Assembly (NCBI GenBank): GCA_036867785.1 | Contig: CP145423.1 | Coordinates: 620,001-684,000, forward strand | Length of the DNA stretch: 64,000 nucleotides | Direction of reading: 5' to 3' | Source of the DNA: Plasmodiophora brassicae | Taxonomy: Eukaryota | Shown: positions 29,701 to 56,010 of the stretch, one piece after another | Layout of the letters: the number at the start of each line of letters is the position of its first letter | Numbering within the stretch: the first letter of the stretch is position 1 | The notes under the pieces: model-generated | What the model was told of the DNA's origin: nothing | The model's input: only the letters and a program-made list of their open reading frames with translations | Databases searched by the model: none | Position numbers and translations under genes: made by a program

Positions 29701-32532
29701 ATACGACGTAACTCATTCTTGTGTTCAGGTGGTAGTCCTTCCTCAACGGCGCGATCCACCATGTTATCAAAGGCCTTGTCAACTTCCGATTTGTCGAAGT
29801 CGCCTACATCAACGAAATAATCAGCGCCAGTCCTCTTCGTTTAAAGTCCCAACACGAAAACGCTTCGTTGTCAAACTCTGGAGTCGGTCTTCATAGCTAC
29901 ATACAAGTTCCACACTGTCAGTACTGTTGGAGTACTTATCCTCGAAAATATCATCGGGGTTAATGCCGAGAATGTCGAGCTCGCGTCGGCCAATAAGGAT
30001 GACGTTATCGCTCAATTCATCTCTGGAGACTAGACATTCCACTCGGCGTAGGGTGACTTGAGTACCCTGTTGAGATGTAAACGTCAGATCTAAAATCGCC
30101 ATTCCAATCATGGTTGCAATCTCATCGGCTTTAGCGAGTTTGCTGATTACAGGCTTTTCGAATTTCCTATACGACACAAACGATTTGCTTTGGATGATAT
30201 CCAACTGGGTCAGAGACAGCGTTGTCGCCGTACAGCCACTGTCGAATTCATACTGGAATGATATGCAATCCTGTACACGTACCGAGCCCAACGAGGCATT
30301 TCCGGATGTCGCTCGTTTGTGCTCTGGGGAACTGACGGAACTTGATCTTTCTGTTGATTCTGCTGATTCTTCTCTTTGATCTGGGTCAGCAATTCCTTAC
30401 GCTTCTCAGGTGTGACTTTCGTGCATAAGGGCAACCAATGATCGCCTTTGCAGAAGGCACATCCACCTTCCGGCGGTTTCTTCCTCTCATACTTTTCCCT
30501 AACATGATCAGGGATCTTAGCAGCGGGCTGTTTACCTGAATGTTCAGTCTTCTTCGTAGACTGGTTCGTGCCGCTGTCTTGTTGCTGCCGGTGTTGCGTC
30601 CGCCGCCGCCACCGTTTCCACCGCCACCATTGCCGTGGTTGTTTTTCTTTTCGGCTCGGTGTCCACCGTTGACCAGACGCCTTTCTTTGCGAATTCGGCT
30701 AATGTGGTTGCGTTGTTGTTCGTCGGCTAGCTTGTCTACGAGGTCAAAGAATTTAATCTCGTCATACCAAGCATCCTCATGATCACCGAATTCGATTTCC
30801 TCGAAGATCGCGCCCGCTGAGCCGATACCACGTCAACCGGTGCATCGGCGCGATGGACCGGCTCGAGTCGATCGTCGACTGGCGCGTTCGTGCCGCCCAC
30901 TACGACAAGGCCGATCCGGGCGCCGCCCTGGACATGATTGCCGTTCAGCTCAACGATCCCGCTCGCCTGTTCCCGCAGGCGCCGCCGATCCCGCCTGAAC
31001 GTCGACTCGTCCCGCGTCGCATGCCGAATCCAAGGGCGCCGACCTTCCGGCTGTCAGAGCAGCAGCAGCGCTGGATGTTTGCGACGGGCGTCGTCATCGA
31101 GGCCGCCAAGGCGTGGTGCCTGCACGGCGAGCCGATCGCGATCTCGGCGCAAGGGCTGGCATCGTTCGGCGGCCGCGCCGCGCTCGACAACGACCCGTTG
31201 GTGGTCGACCCTGACAATCAGGCGGCAAGAACGGCCGTGTTGGCGGCCGAGCAGGCCATGCGCGAAGAGTTTAGTGGCGAGGCCGGCCCGCAGCAGGTCG
31301 ATGACGACGACGAGCACGACAACGGCGCCGGCATCGTTCGGGATGGCGGCCGGGGCGTGCGCGACAACGGCCCGGAGGTTCGCGAGCAGCACCAGCAGCA
31401 ACTGGAGGTCATGGACGCGATCGGCATCGATCGGGATGGCGGCCGGGATGCGCGCGCCAACGCTCAGGACGGCGCGCGAGACGCGCAAGCGGCCCGACCG
31501 GTCGGATCCGGCAGGGATCTAGCGGGCACGCGCCCCAGTCGATCGACGCAGTCACCCGGCATCCTGTACCAAGGCCGCTGTCAGCAAGCAAGGCAAGACG
31601 AGGCACGTGGCGCGACATACCTGCTGGCAAGGGCGATCGCACTGGATGTCGTCGCCAGATGCGTCGCCGCGGCGGGATCGACGTACGCGCCTGGCGATAC
31701 CGTCACAGAGCCGGCTGCACCGACGGTACCCGGCAATGACGAGGCGGCATCGCCGGCGCGCTGCATCATCGACGTGCGCAAGCTCACAGCGCCGTCGTCG
31801 TCGAGATGGCATCCGCCCTGAAATAGCGGCCGCCACGGAGCGCGTCCGTGATCGCGCACCGCCCCTCATCTTCGTCGCCTGCGCTGGATCACTGATCCAG
31901 CTGCAGCCGCAACGCCTCGTCGTTGCATTCTCGTCGCTTTAGCGTGTGAATACACAGACAAGTCCCCCCTTTAACTCCTGCGGTCGAATACCTTCATACA
32001 GGATCTTGATTTTCTTCTTCACCTTCTTTTCCGTTCCTTTCTACTTGTCGTCCAGATGACGGTCACGTACGAATCTGTTGAATTTGCCGAACAAATCGTC
32101 CACTCGCTCGTGGCTCGACTGAATCGACATGTCCATGATAACGGTCTTCTTCAGCAACTCTTTCAGGTTGTGTTCTTTGTTTCCTTTCGCGTTCCTTTTC
32201 TGTACTGCTTGTAGGTACGCTAAAAGATCATCGTCAGTGACTTCATCGAGAGGTTTTCGAATACGATACTGTGCGATGTCATCCAGTTCGTCGTCATCGA
32301 TACACTCTCGCAGTGCCTGCCGGTGTATGTCCTCACCGTGGAATTTCCTGCGTTGTTCAATACGGTTACAATACTTCTTGTACCGCTTCAGAAATGTCGT
32401 TATCTCCTCGAAGTTCTTTGACTTCAACGTCGGAGCAACAATCGGCATGAAGAGAGGCCTACCTCCCCACTGCGCGGTCTCATCATCACTCGACTGGCCG
32501 ATGCCATACTCGACCAACCGTCCCTTTGACAT
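26712..32532 (-). mobile_element. Degenerate Ty3/Gypsy chromovirus-like retrotransposon (gag, protease, RT, RNase H, integrase, chromodomain); gag split by an insertion
   Basis: Zn knuckle CAFCKGDHWLPLC, protease FDSG, RT WIDD, RNase H DAS...EKEA...TDHRNL, integrase LKDDFS...SDQG...VE, chromodomain LLVHWQGF; several frameshifts; no paired LTRs found. Confidence 0.92.
30853..31821 (+). CDS. Hypothetical GC-rich intronless ORF (322 aa) in a 1.15-kb insert within gag
   Basis: Long ORF with host-like composition, unlike the flanking AT-richer retroelement. Confidence 0.5.
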   Translation: MDRLESIVDWRVRAAHYDKADPGAALDMIAVQLNDPARLFPQAPPIPPERRLVPRRMPNPRAPTFRLSEQQQRWMFATGVVIEAAKAWCLHGEPIAISAQGLASFGGRAALDNDPLVVDPDNQAARTAVLAAEQAMREEFSGEAGPQQVDDDDEHDNGAGIVRDGGRGVRDNGPEVREQHQQQLEVMDAIGIDRDGGRDARANAQDGARDAQAARPVGSGRDLAGTRPSRSTQSPGILYQGRCQQARQDEARGATYLLARAIALDVVARCVAAAGSTYAPGDTVTEPAAPTVPGNDEAASPARCIIDVRKLTAPSSSRWHPP

Positions 32533-33535: not shown

Positions 33536-36500
33536 CTCCCCTCGACAAGCTAAAGTCCCTCCGTTATGCTTTTACCCTGTTGTTGGCGCTGCAGACGTCT
33601 TGTTGCACAGAATAAATCTTGTCTTGCACTTACAGTAGTTGAGCATGCTGGGAAAAATTATGTGGGAATCATTCTTCCGTAGGTTATGTTTTTCCTAGTC
33701 CGCCGCAAAGTCGTTTTGCGTCGGACCTCGATGACACGACGTCATCGATCGGCCCTGAGACCATGAAGTCCATTTCAAGGTACTGCTGGGCTTGCATCGT
33801 GCTCACCCGCTAAACCCACTAAAAACCAGTCTGCCCAGTGGCTACAACTGTGCGGTGTTCAGTTGCGGTGCCGTCGACGCTTGGCGTTGGCTGCTGCCTG
33901 GCCCGTTGACTTCCGCTTGGTCTTCACCTGTTTCGGTTGTGATGACCTTCGATTCACGACATTGGATTGTTGCGGCATCATGTCCTGCAACGCTGTTGCC
34001 AATGCATGACTTTTGTGTTCATCGATGAATTCCTGCACCATTCGTGGTTGGTCTTCAATGATGATTTGGGCTGGCTCCCATGATGATTCGTCATTGCTGA
34101 AACCTCGCCATTTGATGAGTAATTCCAAGGTATGTTCACGATTCATGCGTGCATCAGATATCGTGTCAATTTCCCATTTGGCGTTGTCATAGGCGATTTG
34201 CTCCCTGAGCTCTTTGAGGTTTCTATCACAGTAGAATTGAAGTCGACTACCATGAACCACATGTTTGTCCCCGCTGATTATGTCTTCGACCTCGAAGACA
34301 TATCCCGAGTGGACGTTTGTGACACGGTATGGACTTCTCCATTTGAGAAATAATTTCTCACCAGCTCTGAGCGTTTCTGCTTGAAGGACGAAATCTCCCG
34401 GGTATACATTCGGCGGGATTCGATTTTCCGAAACCTTCTGCCGTCGTTGCGCTCTCTGGCGCTCACTGACATCAGCGACTTCCTTGTGCATCTGATTCAG
34501 TGCGGCTATCAGCTCATCAGTGAGCTTCACAATTTCATCAGAAGTCATTTCTGTGACATTGACTTGTGTTTCCCTGATAGGGTTGACGCAGATGCCATCC
34601 AGAGGGCTGTCAGGTTCCAGACCACTGTGAACCTGCACAGGCGCTCGGCCCCCAAGTCGTTGCTGTGGCCTATGGTTGAGCACATGCTCTACCACCTTCA
34701 GCAGCCATGGCCATTCTTCCTTCTGCCATCTCAAGTCTGAGCACAATGTGCGGAATAATGCCAGTACATGTCTGTTGACGATTTCCACCGTTCCGTTCGG
34801 GTAATGAATGTAAGCCGTCGTCCAATGCTGTTTGACATTACACAGCTTGTTGTACTCCCTAGTTACCTCTGACATGAAATATGATGCCTGGTCTGACACA
34901 ATTGTTTTAGGTGTGCCGTTCTTGGACCTCCATTCCATTAGTGCCTGTACCGTGACCAAGCTGTCAGGTACTATCGTTGGCACCAGGTGTACGAGTCCCG
35001 AGAAGTCGTCTCTCAATACCAGTATCCATTTGAAATCATGCCCCGCCTCTTCTTGTGACGGCATCATGTATAGGTAATCCATGTGAAGTACCTCTCCCCG
35101 TCTTTTTTGCATGGCATGCTGGACCCAATGGTCGTGGACGCACCTCACCACCTCGTGTGGGTCGACAGTGTAAGCAATTCTTCGCGATTTGCTTGATGTC
35201 CGCTGATATGCCATTCCAGAGGAATTTGCTTCGCAGGAGAAGCGTCATTTGGTTGATGCTACGATGTGCAAATCCTGCAGCATGTGCAATGACCGTCAAC
35301 CTGACTCTCATCTCCACATCTTCCGATGGGATTACAACCTGTCCTCGCTGGTTTACCCATAACCCAGCCTCGTTCTTCCTCAGGTTGCTTAGCTTATCCT
35401 TTGTGAAGAATTTCATTTGCCGTTCACTGATTTCAGTTTCCGTGGGCCAGATAAGCTTCTCGTCCAGTTTGGGTTGGACTCTGAATTTCTCAGCGAGTTG
35501 CCCCCAACGATTTTGGATTTCCGGATGTATCTCCTGATTCTCATTCTCCCCAACCGTGTTATTGAGTACACCGCGGTCATGGGTTTCCAGATGTATCTCC
35601 TGATCCTCATTCCCCACGCCCCCATTCGAAGCTTCCGGATAACTTTTCCGATCCTCATCACTTCGAATTCGGAGTATTCGGAAGACATTTGTGGTGTCCC
35701 CGTACTTTACTCGTCCGGTGTCGATTTGGTGTTCCAAATCAGCATCTCTTCCGAGACCAGTGTCCGCACCCCATCTCGTTTGCAGGTCAGCCCACACGTT
35801 CTTATCCCCAGGAATATGCTCAATGATGAAGTTGTACTTCCGCAACTTCATACCCCAGCGCTCCAGCCGTTCCGCTGCTGGCTGCGTGCACTTCTGTGGG
35901 TCATATATGTGCATCAAATTCCTGTGATCCGTGTACAGTCTGAATGGTTTTCCCGTCTGTAGGAGATATTCCAGTTTCTCCAGTACATCCACCAATGCGC
36001 TAGCTTCCTTATCTGGAGTCGCCCAGTTAAGTTCTGAACCCGCGAATTTGTGGCCTGAGAAGCCCAGTGGTTGATGATGAGCCTCCCAAATTGGACGATC
36101 TCTGTCTTCCATGGGAATTTGTGTTACCATTCCTGCCCTGTGGTACTTGCTTGCATCTGCAAACACACACTGGATCATATCCTTCCGTGGATATGCTAGT
36201 TGAGTGTTCCTCCCAATCAATTCCTTCAGCTTCTCAAAAGCTTTGTCATGAGTTCACTCCAGCCGTGCCGTCTCAGTCGTACTCCCCCGGCGACCGATCT
36301 GGTTCGCTTCGGCTGATCCTTCATGGATTTCTCATAGATTTCCTGCAGTGGTAGGGCAATACGGCTGTTCTCCGGTATTGACTTGCTCATCCACTGTACT
36401 GCATATAGGAATTGCTGCAAGTCTCTTGCAGTCCTGAGAGTCTGCATTTCTTGCAGCGCTCGAATTCGCTCTGGATCATGGGAGGTTCCCTCTGGCGTGA

Positions 36501-38080
36501 AGATACGCCCTGCGAATTTCACCTTCCTCAAGAAGAAGTCGCACTTTTCCAGATTGAATTTCAGGTTATGCTTTTCAGCCAACCGCAGTGTCATGTCTAA
36601 CACTCTGAACCATTCTTGTTCAGTTTTTGCATGCCCCAGAATGTCGTCAATCCAGATGATGAGTGCCTTCATCAGTAATTCGGAGAATATTTCTGCCATC
36701 CGTGCCTGGAACTGTGGCGACGAATTCAACCCTCCCTGAATTGTTCTGGTTGGAGTGTATATTCCCCTGTCCGTTGCGAACGAGAATATTTCCTGACATT
36801 CCTTTGCCAGAGGCATTAACCAAAAGCCCTTGAATGCGTCCAAAGAAAACCAGTTCTTGGATCCTGCCAAGTGTTGCACAATGGCTTCTAGGAACGGCAT
36901 CGGCCATGCAGTTGCTTCGCATAATTTGTTGACCTCTCTTAGATCAACACACATTCGCCATCCCCTGTTTCCGGGTTTCCGTACTACAACCACCGGTGAG
37001 GCCCACTCACTGTTGTAGTTTTCATAGACCAACCCATATTTCTTCAACAGGGATACGAACTGTTCCAGGAACTCACTTTGTTCCTTGCTGTACCTCCGCG
37101 CCTTACAACGGTACGGTCGCGCTCCCTGCCTTAACCGCGTTCGGCAAGGTGTGACCTTGGCTGCCGGATCTGGTCCCAGCTTCGTTCTCCAGACATTCCA
37201 TCGTTTGAAGGCTAGCCTTCGGAGCCTCCGCTTCCACTTCCGTGGTAGCCCCTGGTCCATGGCTCGAGCGATCGCATTATCAATGCCTTCCCGAATGTCC
37301 TGCGGGACATTGTCGCCAATTGCGACGTCGTCGTCCCCATCCTGATCCCATTTGTATTCATCGCCGTCATCGTATGACTCGTCGCAGTTCATACTGGCAA
37401 TCAGGTATTCCAGAGCCGTTCGTGGGTCTATGCCCAGCTCTTTGAGTAAATCTTGACCCAGGTAGATTTCCTTCACATACTCCACGTCCCATACAAGACA
37501 TGTGTGTCTGCGGATCTGCAGCTCCCCAGCACGCGTATGCAAGAGGATGTCCACTTGAATCTCGTGGGTGGCCTGTCCCACTGCCTCCTCGCTATCCGCC
37601 AGAATCAGCTTGACTGGTTCATCCAGTCTCGTTAATTTGGTGTTTGGATCCATACCACATACCGCCTTGGCAACTGCCATGGGTATTAATGTTCTGTCAG
37701 CCCCACTGTCTAGTATGGCTGGCCGCGGCTCATCCAGCGCTGATAGCGTGACATTGATCTGGTTGGTGGCGCCAGCTGGTATTCCAGCCTCAATGTCCAT
37801 CGCAAGTTGTCGTAACTTGCACACCGCCGCGTGTGTGTTGCGAGTACCATTATCTGAGTCATCAGTGTACTTGCCACGCTTGGCCGGTTTATTCGTCTTT
37901 TTTGACTTAGCGTCCTCTCGTACTTTCTCGTACGCCGGCTTCTTGTCGTCAGCGGATGCTGTGGGACACTTCCGCAACGGATGTGGGCCTCGACAATGCC
38001 AGCACACTGGCTTTTTGTCTTCCGTTTCGGACGTTGGCTTCTTGCCTCCGGCGGCCGGGGTTCCGCCGTTCTCGTCGTCC
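33536..38080 (-). mobile_element. Ty3/Gypsy chromovirus-like retrotransposon body (Zn knuckle, protease, RT, RNase H, integrase, chromodomain), frameshifted and 5'-truncated
   Basis: CWHCRGPHPLRKC, ILDSGAD, WIDD, DAS...TDHRNL, LRDDFS...SDQ...VE and LLIKWRGFSNDESSWEP. Confidence 0.93.
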
Positions 38081-39780
38081 TGACGTGGCGTGCCTCTTCA
38101 GCATCAGACGGAGACGCTCTAATCCTGCGCGTGACATGCCGTTCTGCCGGGCTTCGTGCACGAGTTTGTTCAGCTCGATCTCGATCTCTCGCACGTTAAT
38201 CGGTCCGATATCGACGTCCGCTGTTGCCGGTTCATAGTCGTTCGTCGGGTGCTGATTGTGCGACTGGTCTCCCGTCAACGTTGCCATGCGCGTAACGATG
38301 TACTCCACGTTCTGAATAGAATCCACATCGACGAGTGCACATCCGGACTGGACCACCCTCGATAGCTGCTGAGCAGGACTAATGCCCAGAGCTGCCAACA
38401 GGTCGTTGCCGATGAGAGTGACTGTGACCGCGTCCGAGATGTAGAACTCCACGTTGAACAAGGTGATCTTGCCCACCGTCGTCTCGAGTGTCACTGGGAC
38501 TTTCACCATTTGATCGCATGATCCGATCGCGTGATCATCTGCTGCTAGGATCTCCCTCGCCGTCACGGGCTGGAAGATAACCTCACGGAGCTGGCTGGCA
38601 ACAGCGCTTGGCATGATGTTGCCGCCCCGGCAGCCGGAATCGAGTTCATATGGTACACGAACGTCTCCAATGACTAGCCACTGTTGGCCCCCCTCCAATT
38701 CAGGATAGCGTTGCACCTTCTTCACCTTTATTGGAGGAGGGCCCGCCCGGGCGTTCGCCTTCACCAACGCCCTGCACTCGTCCTCGCTGGGCTTGGTCGG
38801 ACAGTCGCGCAGCGTGTGGCGACCTTTACAGTGCCAACACGTGGGTGCGCGACTGAGCTTGGAGGCGTCAGCTGCGGGTGGAGCCGCCGCTGATATCGGC
38901 TTGCTAGGCTTCGGCGGAGGAGCGACTTTTGCTGGTGCAGGTTCGGATCGGTGGCGCTTGAATCGGTCCACTCGTGCTGCTGGGATAGCGCGCCCGGTAT
39001 CGGGACGGCCTCCACCTGCGGCGTGTTGCTTGTCATGCTGGCGAAGCTCGGCGACCGTGCGCTTAGGCGTGTTGCCTAGCGCATTGGCCTCGTTCTTGTG
39101 AGCCAGCAGGAACGCATCCGCCCAACGCTTCGCCTCCGCCTTCACCGCGACGATGTTGCCTTCGCGTGCAGGCTTATCATCCGTTACCCATCGTCGAAGG
39201 TGCTGGCGCAAGCGGAATGGCTGCATCGCGTCGACGAACAGGCTGACGCGCGCCTTCCTGCCCCCCACGCTGGACCGCAGATCATAACCCAGACGGTGCT
39301 CGTGCTCGTTGAGCGACTCCAGCACCGACTGGATCATGTCCCGCAAGGTGGCCAGGTTGACATTCATGTAAACATGATTCGCCAACCTGTCAGCCATCTC
39401 ATACGGCTGCAGTCCATGGCCGTCTCGCAAGTCGTTGATCGTGTCGACCATCCACTGCTTCAGAGTGGTCTCCGTCAGGTCGTCTACGGAGACCAACTCT
39501 AGTTCGTCCAGCGCGATCAGCTTCAATTGCGCGGCCGTGAAGCAGTGGACGACCGACTGCGGCTTGACCCTCTGGCTCGCAGGACGCTGCCGTTCCCGAT
39601 CGGTAACGACAGCACAGTACTTGTCGTACTGTTCCTGCAGCCGCTGATCGACGGCGCATCTAGCTTCTTCGTGCTCGGCAGCAAGAACGCGTCGCTTACT
39701 TGTGCGTTGTTGGTCATGCCGATGCTGGCTTATGTGCAGCGTGAGTAGAAGTCTAGTAGTGATGCTAAGTAGGTCGAGAA
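38081..39780 (-). mobile_element. Gag-protease fragment of a different Gypsy element
   Basis: CWHCKGRHTLRDC knuckle, LDSG protease, LIGNDLLAALGI; breaks off before RT and joins the next element, producing a chimeric ORF. Confidence 0.85.
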
Positions 39781-40420
39781 CCACTAAAGCTAGCTTTGAG
39801 GTCTTTTCCCAGAATAGTGAACCCTAGAACTAGCTGGATCACAGGCCATACTGGGCCTGTGTGGTATCATGCTAGTAGCCCATGACAGTGTCAACAGAGA
39901 TGCCAGTGGGGAACAGCGGGTGATGTCATGCAGTGACGTCACCAGAGCCAGGCTGATGTAGGGAATGAGACATAAATAGCCGGCCCATTTCTACACGCTC
40001 CATGTCCTGGACGGACACGATCTCACGGGTGGCCACCATGGAGGGCTGGTCGGAGGGGTCGGCGGCGGGTGGCGAACCGGCAGCAGCATGCGGCGTCGGC
40101 AACGATCGGCAGCGGATTCATCCGTGCCGCTGCGCGCGGTGGGCCAGAAGATGGGTGCGCCCAGCCAGCATCAGAGGCCCGTCAGGGTCAACGGTGGTCA
40201 GCGTCGCCGATATTGAGGGCCGCGCACCCTACAGTTGCAACATTCTCGTGACAGAGCCCCAGTCGGCGTGCAACAGACTGCCCACTGGAGTACGCCGGGT
40301 TGGGGGTTCGATTGCGATTTGCGCCACTGGCGTCGTCAGTCGCGCACCTCCCCTCGGCGACCCTGATCTGGGCCGCTGAGCACACGCTGCGCACCCATCT
40401 GGCTCGCCGCAGCGTCACAA

Positions 40421-45900: not shown

Positions 45901-46371
45901 CATCGCTGACGAACAAGGTTCCAGTCGGGAGCCGCCTGCGTCTGACAACGATGTCGCCTGTGGAGGTGGTCCGCGGCTGCAGTCGCGCAGTTTCGCGTTC
46001 GAAAACGGGAGGTCCGCGATTTACCAGGATAACCCTGATCCTGGGAGAGTACAATAATTGTACATACGTTCGCACATTTTTGCGCGATCACGGATCTGAG
46101 CCCAAATGGGTCGAACGTACAATAATTGTACGTTCGCAGGCTAAATTCTGCTATTTTCAAAGCTGGATCGTGAAGAAACGGCAACGTTGTGAGCACTGCA
46201 AATCAGATCGCTCGCCAGCTTGAACGTTATATTTAGCGCCTGCAGAAAACAGCAGGTTGAATCGTACCGGGCGAGTGCCATTGTATCGGTGGTTGTCGAG
46301 GCGGTGTGAGCGGTGTTGCTAGACTGTGGATTGCTGTTTAGTGGTAGGAGAACGTGTCTAGTACGAGTCTA

Positions 46372-49300
46372 ATGGGCGACCTAGCGTCATTCTTCGAGGA
46401 TGACTGCCTTACCTCGAGTGACGAGAAGCAGCCCGGTGGCGACTCCGATCTGAACGAATCCGTTTGGCACCACAAGAAGCTGAATACTTCCAACATCACC
46501 TTCTCTACCACCAGTGTCGACGAGGAGCTGATGGCGGTCGCCAAAGAAGAAGTCGCTGCGGTGACGGCGAAGGTTCGTCGCGCGATTGGGAAAGAACACC
46601 CAGATCTCAGCGATTGCGTGAACTATTTCCTGAACGGCATCATCAACGAGCTCTTCGACGCACTGGGAGAAGGCGTTCCGACTTCTGAGACCATCACGGG
46701 AGAAGAGTTCACCCACTTCGTGAGGGTCCTGGCTTGCTTGTCGGTCTACAAGACGACTCCATCCGTCTTTTTCGACCCCGATCGTGCACACCTGTATCCG
46801 GCAGCAGCGAACTTTTCTCAGGATAGGTTCCGGGTGATCATGTCGGCGTTTAAAACGAAGCGTGGTTGTGATTCTTCAACGGTGACGACTTGGGATCGGC
46901 CGTTCTCAACCGACATCTTGATCCGACGAACCGAGGTCGCGTTTACGCGAACGTCCTGTGCGGTTGCGTTCGTGCAACCGAAGTCGATCCTGTCTGTTGA
47001 CGATGATCAGTACCGACTCACTTCTGCGTTGTCCGAAGAACTGCTCGGGATGACACGGGTCAGCAACGAGAAGAAGGCGTTCGGTATTGTTTCCACAAAC
47101 GCCGTTTCCTTGACGTCCGGCATTCTCCTGGGAGTGCGCCTTCTCGGGAAAGGCGAAGGCTACGGCGACGTGGTGCGAATCTTGTTGATGAACCTACATT
47201 CCGTACAGCTACCCGAGAACGTGCGAGGCACCAACCTCATCTGTTAAGAACGACAATAACGAAGTGATTTATTCCACCGACATCGGCGCGAGACGATGGC
47301 GACGTAACGCAGTGTAACAGGGCTTGCCAAAGCCGTTACCGGCAACGGCGACGGTGGCGGAGCCTCTGTTGTGGACGTGACACAGTCGCGCACCCACACA
47401 ATGTCATCGTGTGCCGGTGGTAGGACATGGTCCTCGACATCTGTCTCGATCGTGGGTATTTACAGCCAAACTTGATTAAGTACCTTATGTCATGCGGGTT
47501 CGAGATCCTTGGCACCCACAAACGGATGAAGACGTTTCCGTTTTTATTCCGTCAGGGTGCGTCGCAAGGCTTGATTGGAAACCAACTGTAAGCGCATTTT
47601 GAATTCCACAACATCGACCGGTTAAGGATGTCGACTTTGATAGGGTGGTCGCGGAAGCTGGCGCGAAATCCCTCTACGTCGCCAAATGCAAGTACGGCGA
47701 ACGAGCATTGTATGCTGTGGCGTTCCGTTCAGGAAGGGGACGGGTCGCCACCATGGTCACCAGCAATGCGAACTTTACATCGTGGGTGTGTAAGACGCAA
47801 GATGGTCGGAAGTGGAACCAGTCCCTTCCAGGGTCGCAGTTGATCCAAGACGCCATCGACGACCATGTCATTCCACTGACTGACGCTCAGAGCGGGCATG
47901 ATTGGCACATTGTTCGCACTGGCTGCTCTAAGTTCACATCGACTTTAGCAGCAGCTGCCGTTCGCGCATTCGCTCGTTCCCTCACTGACGACGATACTCA
48001 ACTTTTGCAAAGTCTCGGGATACGCTCTGCTGACGACGTCGACGAATCGCCGGTGGTTGAGTTTACTCGTGACGAGCTTAACGGAAAGACGGTGCTTGAA
48101 CTGAAAGAATTAGCGGCGTCTCTGAATCTGACGCGGGTCTCATCCGCTTCTAAGCCTACTCTGGTCGAGCGCATCTACGAATGTATGTCCAGTGTCAAGC
48201 TCGTGACGAAGCTGTTGCAACTGTGGTTCATGAAACCGGCACGAACACCAGCCATTAAAATGGGATCCGCCAACGAGGTTAACATAGCGATGGCTCTTGC
48301 TTCGTGGATGAACATCTACGGCAGCGGTTGGTCTGTTGCGAACGGCGAAATCGTTCATCGCGGTCTGCTCCAGAATCGCGAAGTTCCTGTGTTAGCGACG
48401 TCCATTGATGGGGCTGCTGTTCTGGAGAAAACCATCGATGACATCGTTGTATCGTCGTTGGTATGTGTAATCGAGTTCAAGTCGGCGACGGAGAACTCGA
48501 CGGAACGAGAGGCGCCCAGGTCACGATTACAAAGAGTTAGGGACATCGTTGGCGACAGCAACCGTCGAATGTTCGAATTCGACGCTCGTTCTCCACTGTT
48601 CAAAGCGACCGTCTGGACGGCCGAGTACCGTGGGCAATTGCTACACCACTGCGCGACGACAAAGTGCAACTCAGCGCTGTTCGTCAATGCATCAGGCCAA
48701 ACGGTCGTCTACGCGGCGCTTGTATCGTTCAGCCCAGAAAGCCTGCAACAGTACCAAGCAATGATCGCCCGCCTAGATGCCGGCAGCCCTTGCTGACGGA
48801 AAGAGCACTTGAAAGCTATCCGCCGCACGTCTTCGGTCATGCGGTTGACGCGTCAACGTTCACGCTTTGGCGCGACCTCGCATGTGCAATATTGAAACGA
48901 AGGGACGAAGGTCGACCGCTTCCGCCTCTCCATGACGTTGTTCCCCACGTTGTGTCGATGCGGAACCACTGCAAAGGCGGCCAGGATGTCGTTTCCCGTC
49001 AGCTCAAGAACGTGAAGGTGGACTTCCGGTCTCTGACGCCGAGAGGTTTCATATATGTCCGATTTATCATGTCAGCGCTGCTGAACGCGCACATGCTGCA
49101 TCGACTGCTGATGAATTCGGACACGATCTGCAGTTTCGGTAGCTATGGAAGACGTTCCTCAATCACCAGAAGTCATTCAGCGACTTTCTTTGTGACGTCA
49201 TCACACACTGGGTACCATCGCAGAGAATGGTGTCAGGGGAACTTGTCGTTGGGCAAGCCAGCATCGCCACGAGCGCTCTTGGTTCTCCTCGCGTACCGCG

Positions 49301-49521
49301 ATACAATAAGCTGGAGTACTTCAACCGGCCGGACATGGCAACGTATCGCCTGACCATCAGCAACGACATTACTCACTGGTCGGGGAGCGGTCGATCTCGT
49401 TCCTGCGTCGTCTGCAGTGGCCGGACGACAACCTATTGCCAGTCCTGTACGGTCAACTTGTGCGCGACTAAGCACAGTCGCCACCACAAGAGCTGGTACG
49501 AGCTGTTTCACTCCTCGAGGG
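46372..49521 (+). pseudogene. piggyBac-like DDD transposase with inserted YqaJ-like nuclease and SAP-like domains and C-terminal Cys-rich domain (last codons resume at 53560-53638)
   Basis: ILSVDDD / ICLDRGY / KGGQDVVS catalytic motifs; CVVCSGRTTTYCQSCTVNLC; YqaJ-like QSGHDWHIVR, GSANE, LATSIDG, IEFKS, YRGQL; interrupted by insertions and frameshifts. Confidence 0.8.
47245..47439 (-). mobile_element. 195-bp solo-LTR-like insertion with 5-bp TSD TCTGT
   Basis: Removal restores NLIC-LDRGY; minus strand begins TGTCGAGGACCATGTC and contains AATAAA near its end. Confidence 0.75.
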
Positions 49522-49918
49522 TGTCAAGGACCATGTCGTACCACCGGCACACGGTGACGCCGTGTCAGTGCGCGACATGGTCCTTGACACGCCCCCTCCA
49601 ACGGCACGCGGTTGCATGAGGAAGACGGTCGAACGGACGTGTCCCGGCTGGGCCTTTGACTCCGGATCATGAACAACACGGCCTTGCACGCGCGTTTATG
49701 CCTTTTCTCGTTGGCGCGGCACGAGACGGATCGTGGCGTAGCTAGAGGAGACGTGAACGGCGCGGTTTGCTGAGGCAGGGTCGACGATGACGACGCAGAG
49801 AGGAAGACCTGGCTCGGGACGACACCGACGCCGATGGCGCTGGAGGACGACGTTATTTCGAGAAGCGGTTGAGGCAAGCGATTGAGGCCCGTACGACCGG
49901 CGTACGCCTGGCGCTTAC

Positions 49919-52860
49919 CACTGGAAAAATAGGAGTGCCAAATTGGTGCCCCTACCTTCCCCGAGTGCCGAGGAAAGTGCCGATTCCAGGAGCCAACAAT
50001 AGGGAAGTGCCGATGTGGTGCAGGTGCATATCCTGGAGTGCCGAAATAGTGCCAACAGGTCCAACGCGCCAAAAAAGATTGTGACGTCAGGCCGCCGGAA
50101 TGCCCCATTTTTTGCGCCAGTCGTTGACTTCCGATCGTCGTGTTCGATCTGTGGACGATCGTTGTACCTGTGTGTGAGACGCGACAACGGCACCAAAATC
50201 TAGCTCACCTCGCTTCGACGGCTTCGTCTGGATCTGGCTATCGTCCATCCGGTTGGATACCATGGAGGATGCTAACCCCATCATTCGTGCATTTCCACGA
50301 GAAGGCTTTCTTGCCGCCGATGCAAGAAACGACCCTATTGTGAACCCGCGCCATGGTGTCGGCATCCCTGACGAAATGGATCGTCCGATCAGACAAACAA
50401 TGGCTGTATCCTGGCTTCATGATGGTCCGCCGTTAATCGATTTCGACTTCACGGCCGGCTTATCAGACGACGTTGCTGGGATGTCTGCCGACCACATCCG
50501 GTCGGCGGAATTCCTTCGGAAGTACCGGAATGAGGTCGTCCTATCCGAGTTCCTCAAAGTCGAGATTCCGAAGCGCCTGGTTTCGTTGCAGGTGGATCCG
50601 TCCTCCATACGTGCGCTGGAGTGCTTGGATGAGTTTGCCCGCGGGCAGCATACGCAGGCGTCCCTGTGTCGCTCATTAGAACGACTAAGCAAGGATGACG
50701 TAAGGCGCCAGGCCGAGTATACGAAATTCGTAAGCACCGTGTCTGACGAACGTTAGCTGTGTCTCTAATTCTGGTAGTTTAAGGAATACGCTGCCAGCAA
50801 GGGCTGTCCTGTGGACGACCTTGAAGAATGTTTAAACGCCGATCCTGTTCTTTCGCTGCAACGTTCTGGGGGCATCACCACTCTTGCCCAGCTACGCTCC
50901 TATCTGTCGGAGTCGGGCGTTTCGATACCGTCCCTCGAGTATCGCGTTTGCTGCAACGGTCACATGTGGCCAGCCTGCGACTCTCCACCGGACCAGGAGT
51001 GCTGCTCGAAGGCATCCGAACGTTTCTTCTACTTTTCCCGCATCCTATTTCTCCAATCGTTGTTTCGGTCGGCACACATGTCTGGCATCATTCGGTCGGA
51101 AATCGACCGACATCGAAATATTCTCTTGGGAGTTCGTTCTTCCGACACCATTCGCGACTGGACAGACGGCCAGTATTTCAAAGATACGTATGGTCCTTTC
51201 ATGCTGGAGGCGCTGCGCTTCAACGAATACCCTCTTGCGGTGACGTCTGGCATTGACGGCGCCGACGTCTTGAGATGGGGATCGGAATCGGTTACTCCGC
51301 TCATTCAGATACTCTTGAGTCTGCCTCCTGAGGTCCGGTGTAACCTCGGCCTTATCCATGCAGTCGGTTTAATACCGCACATCGCGCGAGGTCATCGTGC
51401 AGCGTTTCTTCGCCTCGACACGTTCGAATTAAACCTGATGTTCCAACTCGGGTTCCCTGTGTTCGATGCGACAACTGGGACGGCAACTGCAAGGGCAGTT
51501 CTATCGTGTGCTGTACGTACTCCCTTCTCCATCTGCTCGTGTCATTTCTGCTTACATATATCCAATTTGTGACAGACATTAGATTACAAAGAGTTCAGCC
51601 TCACAACTCGTTGCTCCCAAGGCGGAAAGCTGGACGCCTGCAACCGGTGTCACGTTCAAGGCTATCATTTCGCGGCGAGCCACGCTACTGTGTTTCCAGG
51701 TCTTTGGCGATGGTCTTCTGAAGACGTCCGAGAGGCTGTAAGCCGCTATAATATTCACGATTTGCACGGCCGTCTAAGACTTTGTACTCAGATGAGCAGA
51801 TCGTTTTTCACGTCGATGACCGAACTGGGAAGAAGTAAGTTCCCGGAAAGTCCAGACGACCGAGATCGCGATCGAACTAGACGGCAGGAATGCCAGTTTC
51901 TCAAGGATGCTCAACCGAAACTGGATTCCGAGATGCGTCTGCGAATGACATCTGGTGATACCGGTGGGCATCGAGTCCCTGGCCATGACATTTATTCAGT
52001 CGGATTATTGAGCGGGTTCGGCCATGCTTCGCAGTACGTGCATGATCCCATGCATGCATTCTGTATGCGTGTTATCCCGCGTCTGGTCAAGTGCTTCGAT
52101 TGGCATGGGAATGGCAAAGAATTGCTTTCTCCAGAGGTTTGATCGCAATTTGTTGTACTTCATCGTCAAACTCATTTGCGGATTAGATCGATCGTGCGTT
52201 TGGTCGCGTTGCTCCCGACGTTCCCGTGTTGACGATTCCCAACAATCGCCGTTTTCCAGCGACGACTTTGGCTTCGTCTGCTGCAAGGCAGATTGGTAGT
52301 GCGATAGAGTCGTTGGAGTGGCCCACCGGAAACTGTGACCGCCCGAAGAACCCGTACCAGTCTTCGATGAAATCTCACGATTGGCTGATTTGGGCAAGTG
52401 ATGTCGGAATCGCCATCTTTGCGGGTTTGATTGGCACGGCCCTGTTCAACAGTTCCGATTCTGCCCTATCCTGGGGAACTGTTTTCGCTTTCATGCACTC
52501 ATCGATGATGATTCTGTCGAAGTCCTTCGACCGGTCGTCGTTCGACACTGTGGCGCAAACGTTCCTCGATGCGTGTGCCCGGCTGGAAACTGTAATTCCT
52601 GGCAAGCTGTTGACGATATCGGTACGTGCCCCGATTATCAATGTCGTATCTGTACATTCATCGCCGCACTGTTGCCGTTCAGATGCATTCGATGATCCAC
52701 CTTCCGGAAGTCATTCGCCAATGGGGCCCTCTTTCTGGTTTCGTATGGACCTATCCAATGGAACGGTGGATCAAGAGGATGAAGTCGATCCTGACAGCCA
52801 CGCAAGGCTTCACAATGAACATCGCCGGCAACGTTCAGCTGATCTCCGCGGCAGCGTATA
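49919..52860 (+). mobile_element. CACTA/EnSpm-type element, 3'-truncated (left end plus spliced transposase)
   Basis: Starts CACTGG followed by GTGCC subterminal repeats; IRDWTDG, LSLPPEVR, HDPMH, MKSHDWLIW and MHSMIHLPEVIRQWGPL..WTYPMERWI motifs. Confidence 0.85.
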
Positions 52861-53231
52861 CGTCCCGGTACTGGTTCTGGATTCCCGTAATGACGGCCTG
52901 CCTTGCTTGCGCGATCTGCCTCGGCTCACTGGCGCGTGACGCGACTGGAGTGGGCGTTCGTGGCGCGTTGTGCAGAAGCAGGGTCAGGGCAGAGACGCGG
53001 TGACGCGGGACAGGCTCTGGATGGCACCGGCGCGCAGGGCGCCGGCGGGCTCGCCGCCTCGAAGCGCGTGCAAGGCCGTGTTGTTCATGATCCGGAGTCA
53101 AAGGCCCAGCCGGGACATGGCGCCAATGGGCCCTCTTCCGTAGTGAATCCCAGGACAGACACCATCGTCGCACCTGGGTGCGGATTGAGGGGGCGTGCCA
53201 GGAATCCAATCCTCACGCCAGTCGGACTTTA

Positions 53232-53303
53232 GGCGCCGTAGCTGAGTGGTACAGCAGCGGTACGTTCCACCGTTGGCCCTGGGTTCGATTCCCAGCGGCG
53301 CCC
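53232..53303 (+). tRNA. tRNA-like gene, copy 1 (nominal GTT anticodon, non-canonical loop)
   Basis: Cloverleaf: acceptor GGCGCCG/CGGCGCC, D arm GCTG/CAGC, anticodon stem GCGGT/ACCGT, T arm CTGGG-TTCGATT-CCCAG; A and B boxes; T5 terminator. Loop ACGTTCC lacks U33 and purine 37. Confidence 0.75.
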
Positions 53304-53472
53304 GCGTTTTTCAGATTAACAGTCGTATGCGCTATACATAGCCATACAGAAATGCGTGGCGCCAATGGGCCCTCTTCCGTAGTGAATCCCAGGACAGACA
53401 CCATCGTCACACCTCTGGCTGCGGATTGAGGAGGCGTGTCAGGAATCCAATCCTCACGCCAGTCGGACTTTA

Positions 53473-53544
53473 GGCGCCGTAGCTGAGTGGTACAGCAGCG
53501 GTACGTTCAACCGTAGGCCCTGGGTTCGATTCCCAGCGGCGCCC
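53473..53544 (+). tRNA. tRNA-like gene, copy 2
   Basis: Same cloverleaf, loop ACGTTCA, followed by TTTTT. Confidence 0.75.
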
Positions 53545-54826
53545 GCATTTTTCAGAGGGCGATCCGCAGGCGTGAAGAGCCGCCACAGCCAAGTCGCCGG
53601 GGTCGTAAGCGATCAATTGGATCTATTAATGTTCAATGAACTCTTTCCAATCCACTCATTTGTCAGCGCATTCCCAACGTACAATAATTGTACGTTCCCC
53701 GTTTGACCGTACAATAGTTGTACTTCGGCTATAAAAAGCTGCCCCGGGGGTGACCTGATTTGGCCAATTTTCGAAGTCAAGTTCCTTCACTACCGGTGAC
53801 GTTATTTCTTCGTTCTTTCAAATGGACACCCTCTGGGCTATTATCTATCTCGACGAGAAACAACGGCGCTTTTCGTCAGGAAACAAAAAATATTCGACGG
53901 GTCAAAGTTGAAAGTACAATAATTGTACGTTCGCGGGGTCCGATCAGGGGTTAGGGCCCGCGCTGGTCCTGGGTATACCGGGGTCAGCCGAAAATAATCA
54001 AACGACGTGAAGAAATCAAACGCCGAGCGAAGCGAGGCGTCCCCCACCGCAGCAACAAAGGCAATGCATGCTCGATCGAGGTACGGAGCACAACTATCCA
54101 TCCCGGATTAACGAATCAAAACACGATGCACGCTAGCGCTCATTGTTGTGCCTGCGCTTCCGGACGCTGGATCGAGTCACGAACGACGATGGAGAAGTCG
54201 GACATTTGGTCTTGTCCTTAATGCCGGGACACTTTTCTTTGCCGCACAGGAAATATATGCCGTCGATCGAATGGCCGTTTCTGCACGTTGGCGATTCTCG
54301 CCTGCGCTTGCTGCTTTCTACTGACAAAAATTGGTCATGGCCCGGCTTCAACTTCAGCCAAGTCGGCTGCGTACCAATACGAGGTTGAGAGGATGATGTT
54401 GAGAAGGACAATATTGCGATTGCCGTCCGAAATGCAATCGCCCCAACTATCAACCGTCGCCACGAATTTTTTCGCGATTGTTGGTGCCCAACTATCGCGA
54501 GCACGCTTGCTCGGCTGGTTTGACTTGAAACCTGTAGCTTCCAGAAGATATAGGGACGGGATGTGGCAATCTTTCAGCCAAGCAGGTAGAGGAGATACGT
54601 AGTGGCGATGCTGATCAATAAAACGGAGCTCGAGATACAACCGTCTTCGCAATCGTGTCCTGTTCGGTAGTGGTTGACCTGAGACTAGTTGTTATCCTGA
54701 TTTGGATTGCACAAGTGCGAGCAGACCGATGTAACGCCCGTTCAGGGTTGTAGATGTGATCTGTGGCGTCGTGCTCCCTCTTTTTCAGCTTCAAAATTGC
54801 AAAGCGCGTAGGTGCCCGCGTTGGAG

Positions 54827-56010
54827 ATGGCGGTCGCTCATGGTGTACACGTGTCCGAAGCAATTGAAAGCCAACATGCTGCAAAAAACACCAAACTGCA
54901 TGCGCTGTACGCCTACTATTTCATCGGCCTCAAGCAGAATCAGATAGCCCTTTTGTATCGCAAGGCGCCATCGACGATCGGCAGATGGATCGACCGGTAC
55001 GAGCGCACCGGTGCCGTATCCAGCAAGGCAGCAGAGTCGCAGCGGAAGTACACGCCTGAACACCGCGAATGGATAAGGGACTACTTCCTCGCCAACCCTT
55101 TGTCTTTTCTTGACGAAGCCAAGCTGGCATTCGAAATCAACTGGAAGAACGACATCAGTTTGAGCACGATCTGGCGCATACTTCGCGAATACGACTTTAC
55201 TCGAAAGGCACGACTCGAACAGCAATGGGTTATCAGTTTCGCTCTTACTGTTGAATAGCTCATTGTCCGTCGAGCCATCCAGATCAAGGAAGCAGACATC
55301 GTCCGATTCTTCGAGGAACTCAACGCTATCGACTGGACCCACTCCAGCCTGTGCTTTCTTGACGAGTTCGGCCTCGACAACCGGGACATGCTACGTCGCA
55401 AGGGTTATGCGCTTAAGGTCCGTCGACGAGTTTCCCAACGTTATCTGTATACAGGACCCCAACATGCGTTATGCAGGGCCAGGAACTGCTCTTCAGAGGC
55501 GAATTCGTCAGAAGGCCGCGTAGCTCGTTGTTGTGCTTCATCGGATGTGATGGGTTGGAAGGCACATTTCTCACAGAGGGCACGTTCGATCGGCAGAAAT
55601 TTGTCGAATGCGTCCGTGAGCATGCTCTGTCCGGCCGAGTTCAGAAGCATCCTGGGCGGCAATCGGTTTGGATCATGGATGGAGCCAGGATACATTGCCA
55701 TCATACGATAGACGAGTACCTACGGGATTTCGGCATCATTCCCATCTTCCTGCCAGCCTACTGTCCGATGTTCAACCCGATTGAGATTGTGTTCGGTCTT
55801 GTCAAGAAAAGCCTTAGGCGTTGGTATGCTGAAGGCAATATCAAACCGAAGGACCTCCCTGTTGTCATCTTATCGGAACTCAAGAAGTTTCGGAGATATG
55901 ACATGAGACGTCTGTTCAAGAAATGTGGGTTTGGCGCAAACGGAAAGTTCAATCCAGGCGTCGCCTACAAGGACATCACGAATCGCATGACGGAGGTCGG
56001 ATTCGAATAA
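54827..56010 (+). CDS. Tc1/IS630-family DD34E transposase, 3 exons, apparently intact
   Basis: N-terminal HTH; CFLDEFG, WIMDGARIH, PAYCPMFNPIE with 34 residues between D and E; introns 55208-55258 (GC-AG) and 55418-55476 (GT-AG) give one frame. Confidence 0.88.

Follow-up and report, generated by a model that had tools for sequence, protein, structure and literature searches.

Locus, ends and coding segments of the element

The stretch analysed here (henceforth the window) comprises 64,000 nucleotides (nt) of the Plasmodiophora brassicae genome (GenBank assembly GCA_036867785.1, contig CP145423.1, positions 620,001 to 684,000 of the forward strand), and its positions 46033-53950 are a decayed, inactivated copy of a DNA transposon, whose transposase is the subject of this text. 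The longest frame of the window (47603-48796) gave as its best database match an NCBI P. brassicae 'SAP domain-containing protein'. The NCBI gene model of the locus (P0002, 705 amino acids (aa)) is 100% identical and truncated, and a P. brassicae paralog of the window protein (P0001, 558 aa) is 77% identical and internally deleted, with its C-terminal half retained. In the databases, proteins of this family are labelled only 'SAP domain-containing' or hypothetical.

The defects of the window copy were mapped by placing the paralog and a distant full-length relative on the window, complemented by reading of the raw sequence. The element and its flanks are made up as follows (coordinates in the window; strand in brackets where it applies).

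46029..46032, left flank ATAA, a 3/4 match to TTAA (direct reading)
46033..46040 (+), left terminal inverted repeat CCCTGATC, reverse complement of 53942-53949
46049-46063 and 46117-46131, two left subterminal palindromes GTACAATAATTGTAC (motif search)
46372..47244 (+), first coding segment (frame 1), covering the N-terminal region and, at 46993-47010, the motif SVDDDQ of catalytic Asp1, aligned to piggyBat LSLDE
47245..47444, 200-base-pair (bp) secondary insertion (small repeat) with ATCTGT on either side, disrupting the codons immediately before the second Asp
47445..47587 (+), second coding segment (frame 3), with the motif (C)LDRGY of catalytic Asp2, aligned to piggyBat MDNYY, and the GTHKR strand
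47588..47643 (+), GT..AG intron of 56 nt
47644..47875 (+), coding segment 3a in frame 2, carrying the beta-strand 'insertion domain' common to canonical piggyBac; the piggyBat profile block ends here
47876..47947 (+), nuclease motif I (Q..W..R..TST; LTDAQ..W..R..TST), identified by motif and by profile match to LHK-Exo residues 2-45
48077..48175 (+), SAP-like helix-extended-helix pair inside the nuclease (Rho_N at 16 bits in the window copy; family profile against Ku70)
48224..48781 (+), nuclease core with GSANE (48263-48277), ATSIDG (48395-48412), IEFKS (48470-48484) and YRGQLLHH (48626-48649)
48782..48789 (+), first of two frameshifts, leading from frame 2 into frame 1 and located by tblastn with paralog P0001
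48790..49142 (+), fourth coding segment (frame 1), in which KGGQD, the motif of catalytic Asp3, lies within 48958-49011 and aligns to piggyBat/piggyBac KG(G)VD
49143..49520 (+), fifth coding segment (frame 3), read after a further frameshift near 49150; its C-terminal Cys-rich domain at 49404-49511 aligns to the C-termini of piggyBat and piggyBac
49522..53559, nested composite insertion of 4038 bp with GAGGG at both sides, foreign to the piggyBac-like element
53556..53639 (+), end of the transposase frame, resumed beyond the nested insertion, with a basic C-terminal tail and the stop codon (mapping of relatives)
53679-53693, 53709-53723 and 53914-53928, three right subterminal palindromes (motif search)
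53942..53950 (-), right terminal inverted repeat GATCAGGG(G) (direct reading)
53951..53954, right flank TTAG, a 3/4 match to TTAA (direct reading)

The defects listed in a first-pass annotation of the window, which had been made from the sequence alone, were all reproduced (200-bp insertion 47245-47444, intron 47588-47643, frame changes near 48782 and 49150, insertion 49522-53559), and the protein motifs named there (SVDDD, CLDRGY, KGGQD, the Cys-rich domain, the YqaJ-type set and the SAP-like pair) were found at or within a few bases of where they had been placed; CLDRGY, for instance, occupies 47442-47459. Four public sequencing runs, whose RNA nature is only a guess, were mapped on the region, and in contigs of three of them position 47587 was joined exactly to 47644. 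This joint is compatible with splicing of the intron, and hence the broken copy is apparently transcribed.

The ends of the element bear out the piggyBac-type CCC..GGG termini that had been proposed, with CCCTGATC on the left (46033-46040) and GATCAGGG(G) on the right (53942-53950). Five copies of the palindrome GTACAATAATTGTAC were counted, each within ~100-270 nt of the element ends, and none elsewhere in the 64 kb (chance expectation 0.03 matches; observed count reached in 0 of 100 shuffles). A contig of run X17 tracks the window to 53953 and then continues for 201 letters of unlike sequence, which is an independent mark of the right boundary, as expected for another copy or allele ending there.

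Transposase core and embedded nuclease

For the family profile, P0001 and P0002 were aligned side by side (input A1) and used in an exhaustive HMMER search at E ≤ 1e-3, and profiles built from 49 rows and from 96 rows of the family alignment were searched against the PDB. With 49 rows, the best matches were piggyBat (9c0f_C, E 3.1e-11) and T. ni piggyBac (6x67_C, E 1.4e-7); with 96 rows, the respective values were 1e-16 and 5.6e-11. The piggyBat match consisted of two blocks: profile positions 9-350 were aligned to chain residues 45-375, with DDD.. over LSLDE and DRGY over MDNYY, and profile positions 775-978 to chain residues 404-574, with KGGvD over KGVD and with the Cys-rich C-terminus included. 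Between the blocks lie about 425 profile positions versus 28 residues in piggyBat. The piggyBac identity with three Asp in piggyBac order, as claimed in the first-pass annotation, is corroborated by these blocks, in which all three motifs fall on catalytic Asp positions, and so is its C-terminal Cys-rich domain, since 49404-49511 align to the C-termini of both piggyBat and piggyBac.

An AlphaFold model of P0003, the closest intact relative (1074 aa, 150-row alignment), reached a predicted local distance difference test score (pLDDT) of 85.3 and a predicted template modelling score (pTM) of 0.81, and its best PDB folds in Foldseek were piggyBac 6x67_C (2.3e-7) and piggyBat 9c0f_C (3.8e-5), followed by Tn5 transposase. 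A match to piggyBac was therefore obtained by profile as well as by fold, as the earlier reading had anticipated. Conservation of the three catalytic residues was high (P0003 numbering: D258 in 39/39, D341 in 44/45 and D833 in 46/47 rows), and the Cys-rich domain keeps C978, C981, C989, C992, C997, C1008 and H1013 in 40-43 of 41-43 rows, with a Pfam zf-Tnp_2 score of 19.6 bits, under the cutoff of 24. The family differs from canonical piggyBac in that, among 24 relatives scanned, P0041 alone exceeded the cutoff of the Pfam piggyBac model DDE_Tnp_1_7 (28.3 bits; cutoff 22.4); at E ≤ 0.05 the model matched 7 of 49 relatives. A single window segment searched by phmmer against the PDB gave chance-level matches only.

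We regard it as very unlikely that the resemblance to piggyBac is superficial and the element a member of some other superfamily that is TTAA-associated or IS4-like (Kolobok, Tn5/IS4-like). Such an affiliation would agree with KolobokE, in which, according to PMC9587614, a lambda-exonuclease-like nuclease is coupled to a transposase with TTAA targets, with the appearance of the Tn5 structure 1muh_A in the P0003 fold search (1.9e-4), and with P0138 scoring at the cutoff of Pfam DDE_Tnp_1 (23.0 bits). However, the best profile and fold matches were to piggyBat and piggyBac, Cys-rich C-terminus included, the third catalytic residue is an Asp in a piggyBac-like KGGxD motif, and the ends read CCC..GGG instead of the RR..YY given for Kolobok in that source. 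On these three grounds a Kolobok affiliation was rejected.

A second AlphaFold model, on a 96-row alignment, was made of 383 residues of the window copy itself (47645-48796; pLDDT 88.9, pTM 0.85). In the fold search, the top seven PDB matches were all lambda exonuclease or LHK-Exo (E from 2.0e-5 for 3slp_A to 4.5e-4, target TM about 0.5), with Dna2, MGME1, SOX, R354, RecE and Cas4 below them. Against a viral structure library, the segment gave 33 matches at E ≤ 1e-3, and the named ones were almost all YqaJ, exonuclease, phage-type endonuclease, Cas4/PD-(D/E)XK or (baculovirus) alkaline exonuclease. LHK-Exo was also among the folds matched by the full-length P0003 model, together with lambda exonuclease (3slp_A, 5.6e-4, target TM 0.57). 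At profile level, one half of the nuclease corresponded to LHK-Exo residues 2-45 (E 0.01) and the other to mimivirus R354 (1.6e-4), while the PHROG RecE-like exonuclease family matched 6 of 49 relatives. Weak hits to the Pfam model YqaJ (PF09588) came from 4 of the 49 relatives (E ≤ 0.05; lowest E 5.4e-4). The YqaJ/lambda-exonuclease-like module that had been proposed between the second and third Asp is thus recovered in the fold of the window's own segment, which is that of lambda exonuclease, LHK-Exo and YqaJ proteins; as none of the 24 relatives reached the YqaJ cutoff of 22 bits (best 17.2 bits), the predicted module is described as lambda-exonuclease-like by fold and motifs rather than as a member of Pfam YqaJ.

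The nuclease residues are nearly invariant in the family (P0003 numbering: D637, E658, K660 and Q711 each in 48/49 rows; W470 and R474 in 46/47; Q465 in 44/47), and SIDG, IEFKS and Q..W..R are all present in the window copy. They are putative equivalents of individual lambda-exonuclease residues. Pairwise identity among 35 full-length rows was 0.25-0.26 in the nuclease blocks and 0.23-0.24 in the DDD core (named for the three catalytic Asp), and judged from these alignments the nuclease blocks are conserved as strongly as the core.

The embedded SAP-like helix pair was likewise found where it had been claimed. It is located between nuclease motif I and the remainder of the nuclease, and the SAP region of the family profile matched the Ku70 SAP best (E 1.8e-11), followed by THO1 (about 3e-4). 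Pfam SAP (PF02037) scored above 23.9 bits in 9 of 24 relatives and matched 22 of 49 at E ≤ 0.05. In the window copy, Rho_N alone was matched in this region (16.0-16.4 bits, under the cutoff of 24.9), and the cutoff of Pfam SAP was not reached. Among 41 long relatives, six lacked a SAP match between the nuclease halves (P0037, P0062, P0087, P0140, P0101 and P0141); in the SAP position, P0037, P0062 and P0140 carry an insert of 280-350 residues and P0087 a shorter one of ~150 residues. The site within the nuclease seems to accept differing inserts.

It might be argued that the nuclease-like domain is a non-catalytic scaffold, i.e., a DNA-binding or oligomerisation module at the position of the insertion domain. 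In favour of this view are the low scores against YqaJ sequence models, the embedded SAP motif as a hint at DNA binding, and the structural roles that insertion domains play in other transposases. We nevertheless consider such a scaffold unlikely, since each of the catalytic residues (D, E, K, Q) and of the motif I residues W and R is kept in 46-48 of 47-49 relatives despite ~25% pairwise identity, which would not be expected of a dead enzyme.

Relatives, interpretation and proposed mechanism

The exhaustive search returned 642 representative relatives at E ≤ 1e-3, 57 of them at E ≤ 1e-30, and many are full-length (about 1000-1400 aa) and colinear over profile positions of roughly 10-970. Named sources were P. 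brassicae, with two paralog families, and the ichthyosporean Chromosphaera perkinsii; a look-alike cluster found by language model is mostly labelled Oomycota and is taken as a lead only. Word-indexed protein searches retrieved nothing beyond the protein of the window itself, a single paralog and a few relatives. Block hidden Markov models (HMMs; DDE_N, NUC1, SAP, NUC2, DDE_C and CRD) were cut from the family's own alignment and applied to the relatives. The order DDE_N-NUC1-(SAP)-NUC2-DDE_C-(CRD) was found in 41 of 41 examined proteins of at least 900 aa (all six blocks in 33, no SAP match in 6, no Cys-rich block in 2), and NUC2 was missing from none of the 51 proteins having both DDE halves. 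As every full-length relative examined keeps the order, the combination of piggyBac and nuclease points to a lineage rather than a nested fragment, in line with what the first-pass annotation had put forward; copies lacking the nuclease segment, which it had named as a refuting condition, were absent among these 51 proteins.

Intact members of the family are apparently represented by two metagenome contigs. L006 carries one open frame of 1348 codons and L007 one of 1296 codons, both with the block order of the family and bounded by CCCC..GGGG inverted ends (terminal repeat CCCCGCTCCAT, 11/11 nt, in L006; CCCC[C/G]CACCA in L007) as well as by several copies of an own 20-nt palindrome. A third contig (L002) has an uninterrupted single frame and a right end (..CATCAGGGG) that resembles the window's. 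The palindromes are specific to the element and present in 2-4 copies per end (ATGTGTAGAATTCTACACAT in L006, GTGTGTACATATGTACACAC in L007 and GGTACCTTAGGTAC-like in L002). Because each of the three contigs carries its own, subterminal palindromes are a trait of the family; their letters vary but their arrangement is kept, as though the binding domain had evolved together with its site.

These relatives bear on the possibility that the fusion is a one-off artefact of the locus, produced either by a nuclease gene fragment inserted in a piggyBac relic or by a chimeric gene model. Two unrelated nested insertions are indeed present at the locus and the NCBI model P0002 is truncated, but the colinear order recurs in 41 of 41 long relatives from unrelated sources, the frames on L002, L006 and L007 are uninterrupted, and P0003 yields one confident multi-domain AlphaFold model (pTM 0.81), which makes an artefact extremely improbable. 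A one-off nested fragment is refuted by the 642 relatives, the same order in 41 of 41 and the intact frames on metagenome contigs.

A second P. brassicae member (P0026/P0152, PBRA_003430) is about 25% identical, full-length (1043-1057 aa) and equipped with all six blocks, and, judged from its sequence, may be either active or domesticated. Domestication of piggyBac genes is common, and the annotation of this divergent paralog as an ordinary gene would suit the view that the family is a domesticated host gene with fortuitous terminal repeats. We give that view hardly any weight, because the window copy is broken in four ways, it is bounded by inverted CCC..GGG ends and by five palindromes that occur nowhere else in the 64 kb, analogous ends exist in L006 and L007, and the paralog P0001 is internally deleted. 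For the window copy, domestication was rejected, as it is broken four ways and bounded by transposon-type ends and palindromes.

Taken together, the window element is best explained, with a probability of roughly 0.8, as an inactivated cut-and-paste transposon of a distinct piggyBac lineage with a lambda-exonuclease/YqaJ-type nuclease and a SAP motif built into a single transposase. The encoded order, read along the alignments, is a piggyBac-like N-terminus, Asp1 and Asp2, the beta insertion domain, a SAP-split PD-(D/E)xK nuclease, the third-Asp helix and the Cys-rich domain, and by residue conservation two predicted catalytic centres are carried, both conserved, in one polypeptide.

Several observations weigh against this explanation. 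The pieces of the window protein, P0001 and P0002 gave no Pfam match to DDE_Tnp_1_7 or YqaJ even at E ≤ 0.1-1, and the failure of all 24 relatives at the YqaJ cutoff counts here as well. The block HMMs derive from the same family they test, and the 150 relatives listed are the best scorers to a nuclease-containing profile, so that nuclease-less relatives would rank lower and may be missed. The toroidal trimer of lambda exonuclease is difficult to square with a domain embedded in a transposase dimer, and a role of the nuclease in donor-site repair is purely inferential. At the ends, the terminal repeat of the window element is short (only 8 nt), and the degenerate TTAA claimed for it aptly describes the flanks ATAA and TTAG, which each match at three of four positions, but an exact TTAA duplication was not seen at the element. 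Of eight flanks read in the window and in related contigs (left/right: window ATAA/TTAG; L007 TTAT/TTAA; L006 TAAA/TTAT; L005 left CTAT; L002 right TAGG), one is exactly TTAA, the other seven depart from it in one to three letters, and the left and right flanks differ in every pair. AT-rich flanks amid GC-rich DNA fit a TTAA-like target followed by decay, or relaxed specificity.

With canonical piggyBac (6x67; piggyBat 9c0f), the family shares the DDD motifs, which align residue for residue, an RNase H-like fold, the beta insertion domain past the second Asp, the Cys-rich C-terminus, CCC..GGG termini and AT-rich, TTAA-like flanks, but it has ~400 additional profile positions (nuclease and SAP) between the insertion domain and the third Asp. 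With lambda exonuclease, YqaJ, LHK-Exo and RecE, it shares the fold and the ordered motifs Q..W..R..T[AS][ST], G..NE, S.D, E.K and R.Q..H with near-invariant catalytic residues; unlike in these enzymes, the nuclease sits in the catalytic core of another enzyme, is split by SAP and linkers between motif I and G..NE, has a D-to-ExK spacing of 21 residues in P0003, and was seen with no partner annealing protein. The SAP motif has the helix-extended-helix form of those of Ku70, THO1 and PIAS/SIZ1, whereas here it is an insert within a transposase-borne nuclease.

The closest parallels are KolobokE and ISL2EU, which according to PMC9587614 and PMC4122938 are likewise eukaryotic DDD/E cut-and-paste transposons with a lambda-exonuclease/YqaJ-type nuclease. 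They belong to other superfamilies, and the nuclease of KolobokE lies downstream of the transposase domain (PMC9587614) and not between Asp2 and Asp3, while ISL2EU elements encode the YqaJ exonuclease as an additional, separate open reading frame (PMC4122938) and not inside a piggyBac catalytic domain; the contrast with ISL2EU drawn in the first-pass annotation is thus borne out by this source. The pairing of nuclease and transposase is already known in two other superfamilies, and what appears to be new is its placement inside the piggyBac core. A literature search, with Repbase, Dfam and paper supplements outside its scope, found no piggyBac transposase with nuclease and SAP between the second and third Asp; the family, which is widespread in protists, is apparently undescribed. 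With KolobokE and ISL2EU counted, this would be the third time that a DDD/E transposon independently recruited a lambda-type exonuclease, and recurrence of this kind suggests that end resection during transposition has repeatedly been favoured by selection.

Few eukaryotic transposases are as well understood as piggyBac, which is also one of those most often employed in genome engineering; it acts by nicking, hairpin formation and opening, and integration, its Cys-rich domain binds internal repeats, and its hallmark is seamless excision without DNA synthesis. Lambda exonuclease digests the 5' strand from DNA ends. By analogy, the DDD core of active members would excise and integrate the element in piggyBac fashion (nicking, hairpin forming and opening, integration), with the subterminal palindromes as putative transposase binding sites corresponding to the internal repeats for the piggyBac Cys-rich domain, and SAP may tether the built-in nuclease, which would be catalytically active as a 5'-3' exonuclease and resect DNA ends made in transposition. 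As to the substrate, we tentatively prefer resection of the donor break, which would lead to homologous-recombination repair from a sister or homologous copy and leave the element retained at the donor site, although the odds of this version are somewhat below even. A second version, in which 5' overhangs or hairpins are trimmed on the excised ends, could also relax the strict TTAA requirement and appears unlikely. The full scheme, 'cut, resect and paste', is doubtful as a whole: a Ku70-like SAP-tethered exonuclease would resect the piggyBac-made ends, excision would be non-seamless, homologous-recombination repair would restore the donor copy and render transposition effectively replicative, and 5' trimming would free integration from strict TTAA pairing. 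The region between insertion domain and third Asp tolerates a 400-residue enzyme, and a second conserved nuclease site together with a DNA-end-type SAP in the catalytic domain suggests that donor and transposon ends are handled differently.

Nested insertions and surroundings

The element is situated in a transposon-rich stretch and has itself received two insertions. The large one (49522-53559) is composite, with perfect 54-nt inverted repeats at 49640-49693 and 53064-53117. Its + strand frames (50178-52939) resembled Transposase_21 (Tnp2/CACTA-type) clusters with a language-model score of 0.94, which is a lead only, and gave no Pfam match. Within it, five GT..AG intervals were joined in contigs of three runs (50729/50778, 51512/51576, 51737/51792, 52134/52185 and 52620/52682), as for a spliced multi-intron gene. 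Furthermore, 49915 was joined to 52859 at high depth in contigs of all four runs, with 2943 bases skipped, which suggests that a non-autonomous form of the nested element, shortened by internal deletion, is abundant.

At the right edge of the large insertion, ARAGORN identified two tRNA-Asn(GTT) genes (53232-53303 and 53473-53544) in a tandem duplication of 239-241 nt (53118-53315 / 53357-53556, 95.5% identical); these may be real tRNA genes carried by the nested element or a tRNA-derived short interspersed element. When inverted, the last 55 nt of the 200-bp insertion (47245-47444) match the first 55 nt of the large insertion at 85% identity, and on account of this match the two share a terminus family. 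Contig depth over 47245-47444 was far above that of the surroundings in four of four runs, as for a high-copy miniature element.

Upstream, in the lower-GC part of the window, two Ty3/gypsy-type retroelement bodies are located on the - strand (27013-29840 and 33859-39823), with reverse transcriptase, RNase H and integrase, and a chromodomain in one of them. Just downstream of the element, a frame at 54812-55258 (+) contains HTH_23/HTH_32 homeodomain-like motifs, which are typical of the N-termini of Tc1/mariner- or pogo-type transposases. Between the element and this frame, 340 bases (54005-54344) were skipped in contigs of three runs, with four other letters at the joint, which may reflect a further small indel or insertion polymorphism.

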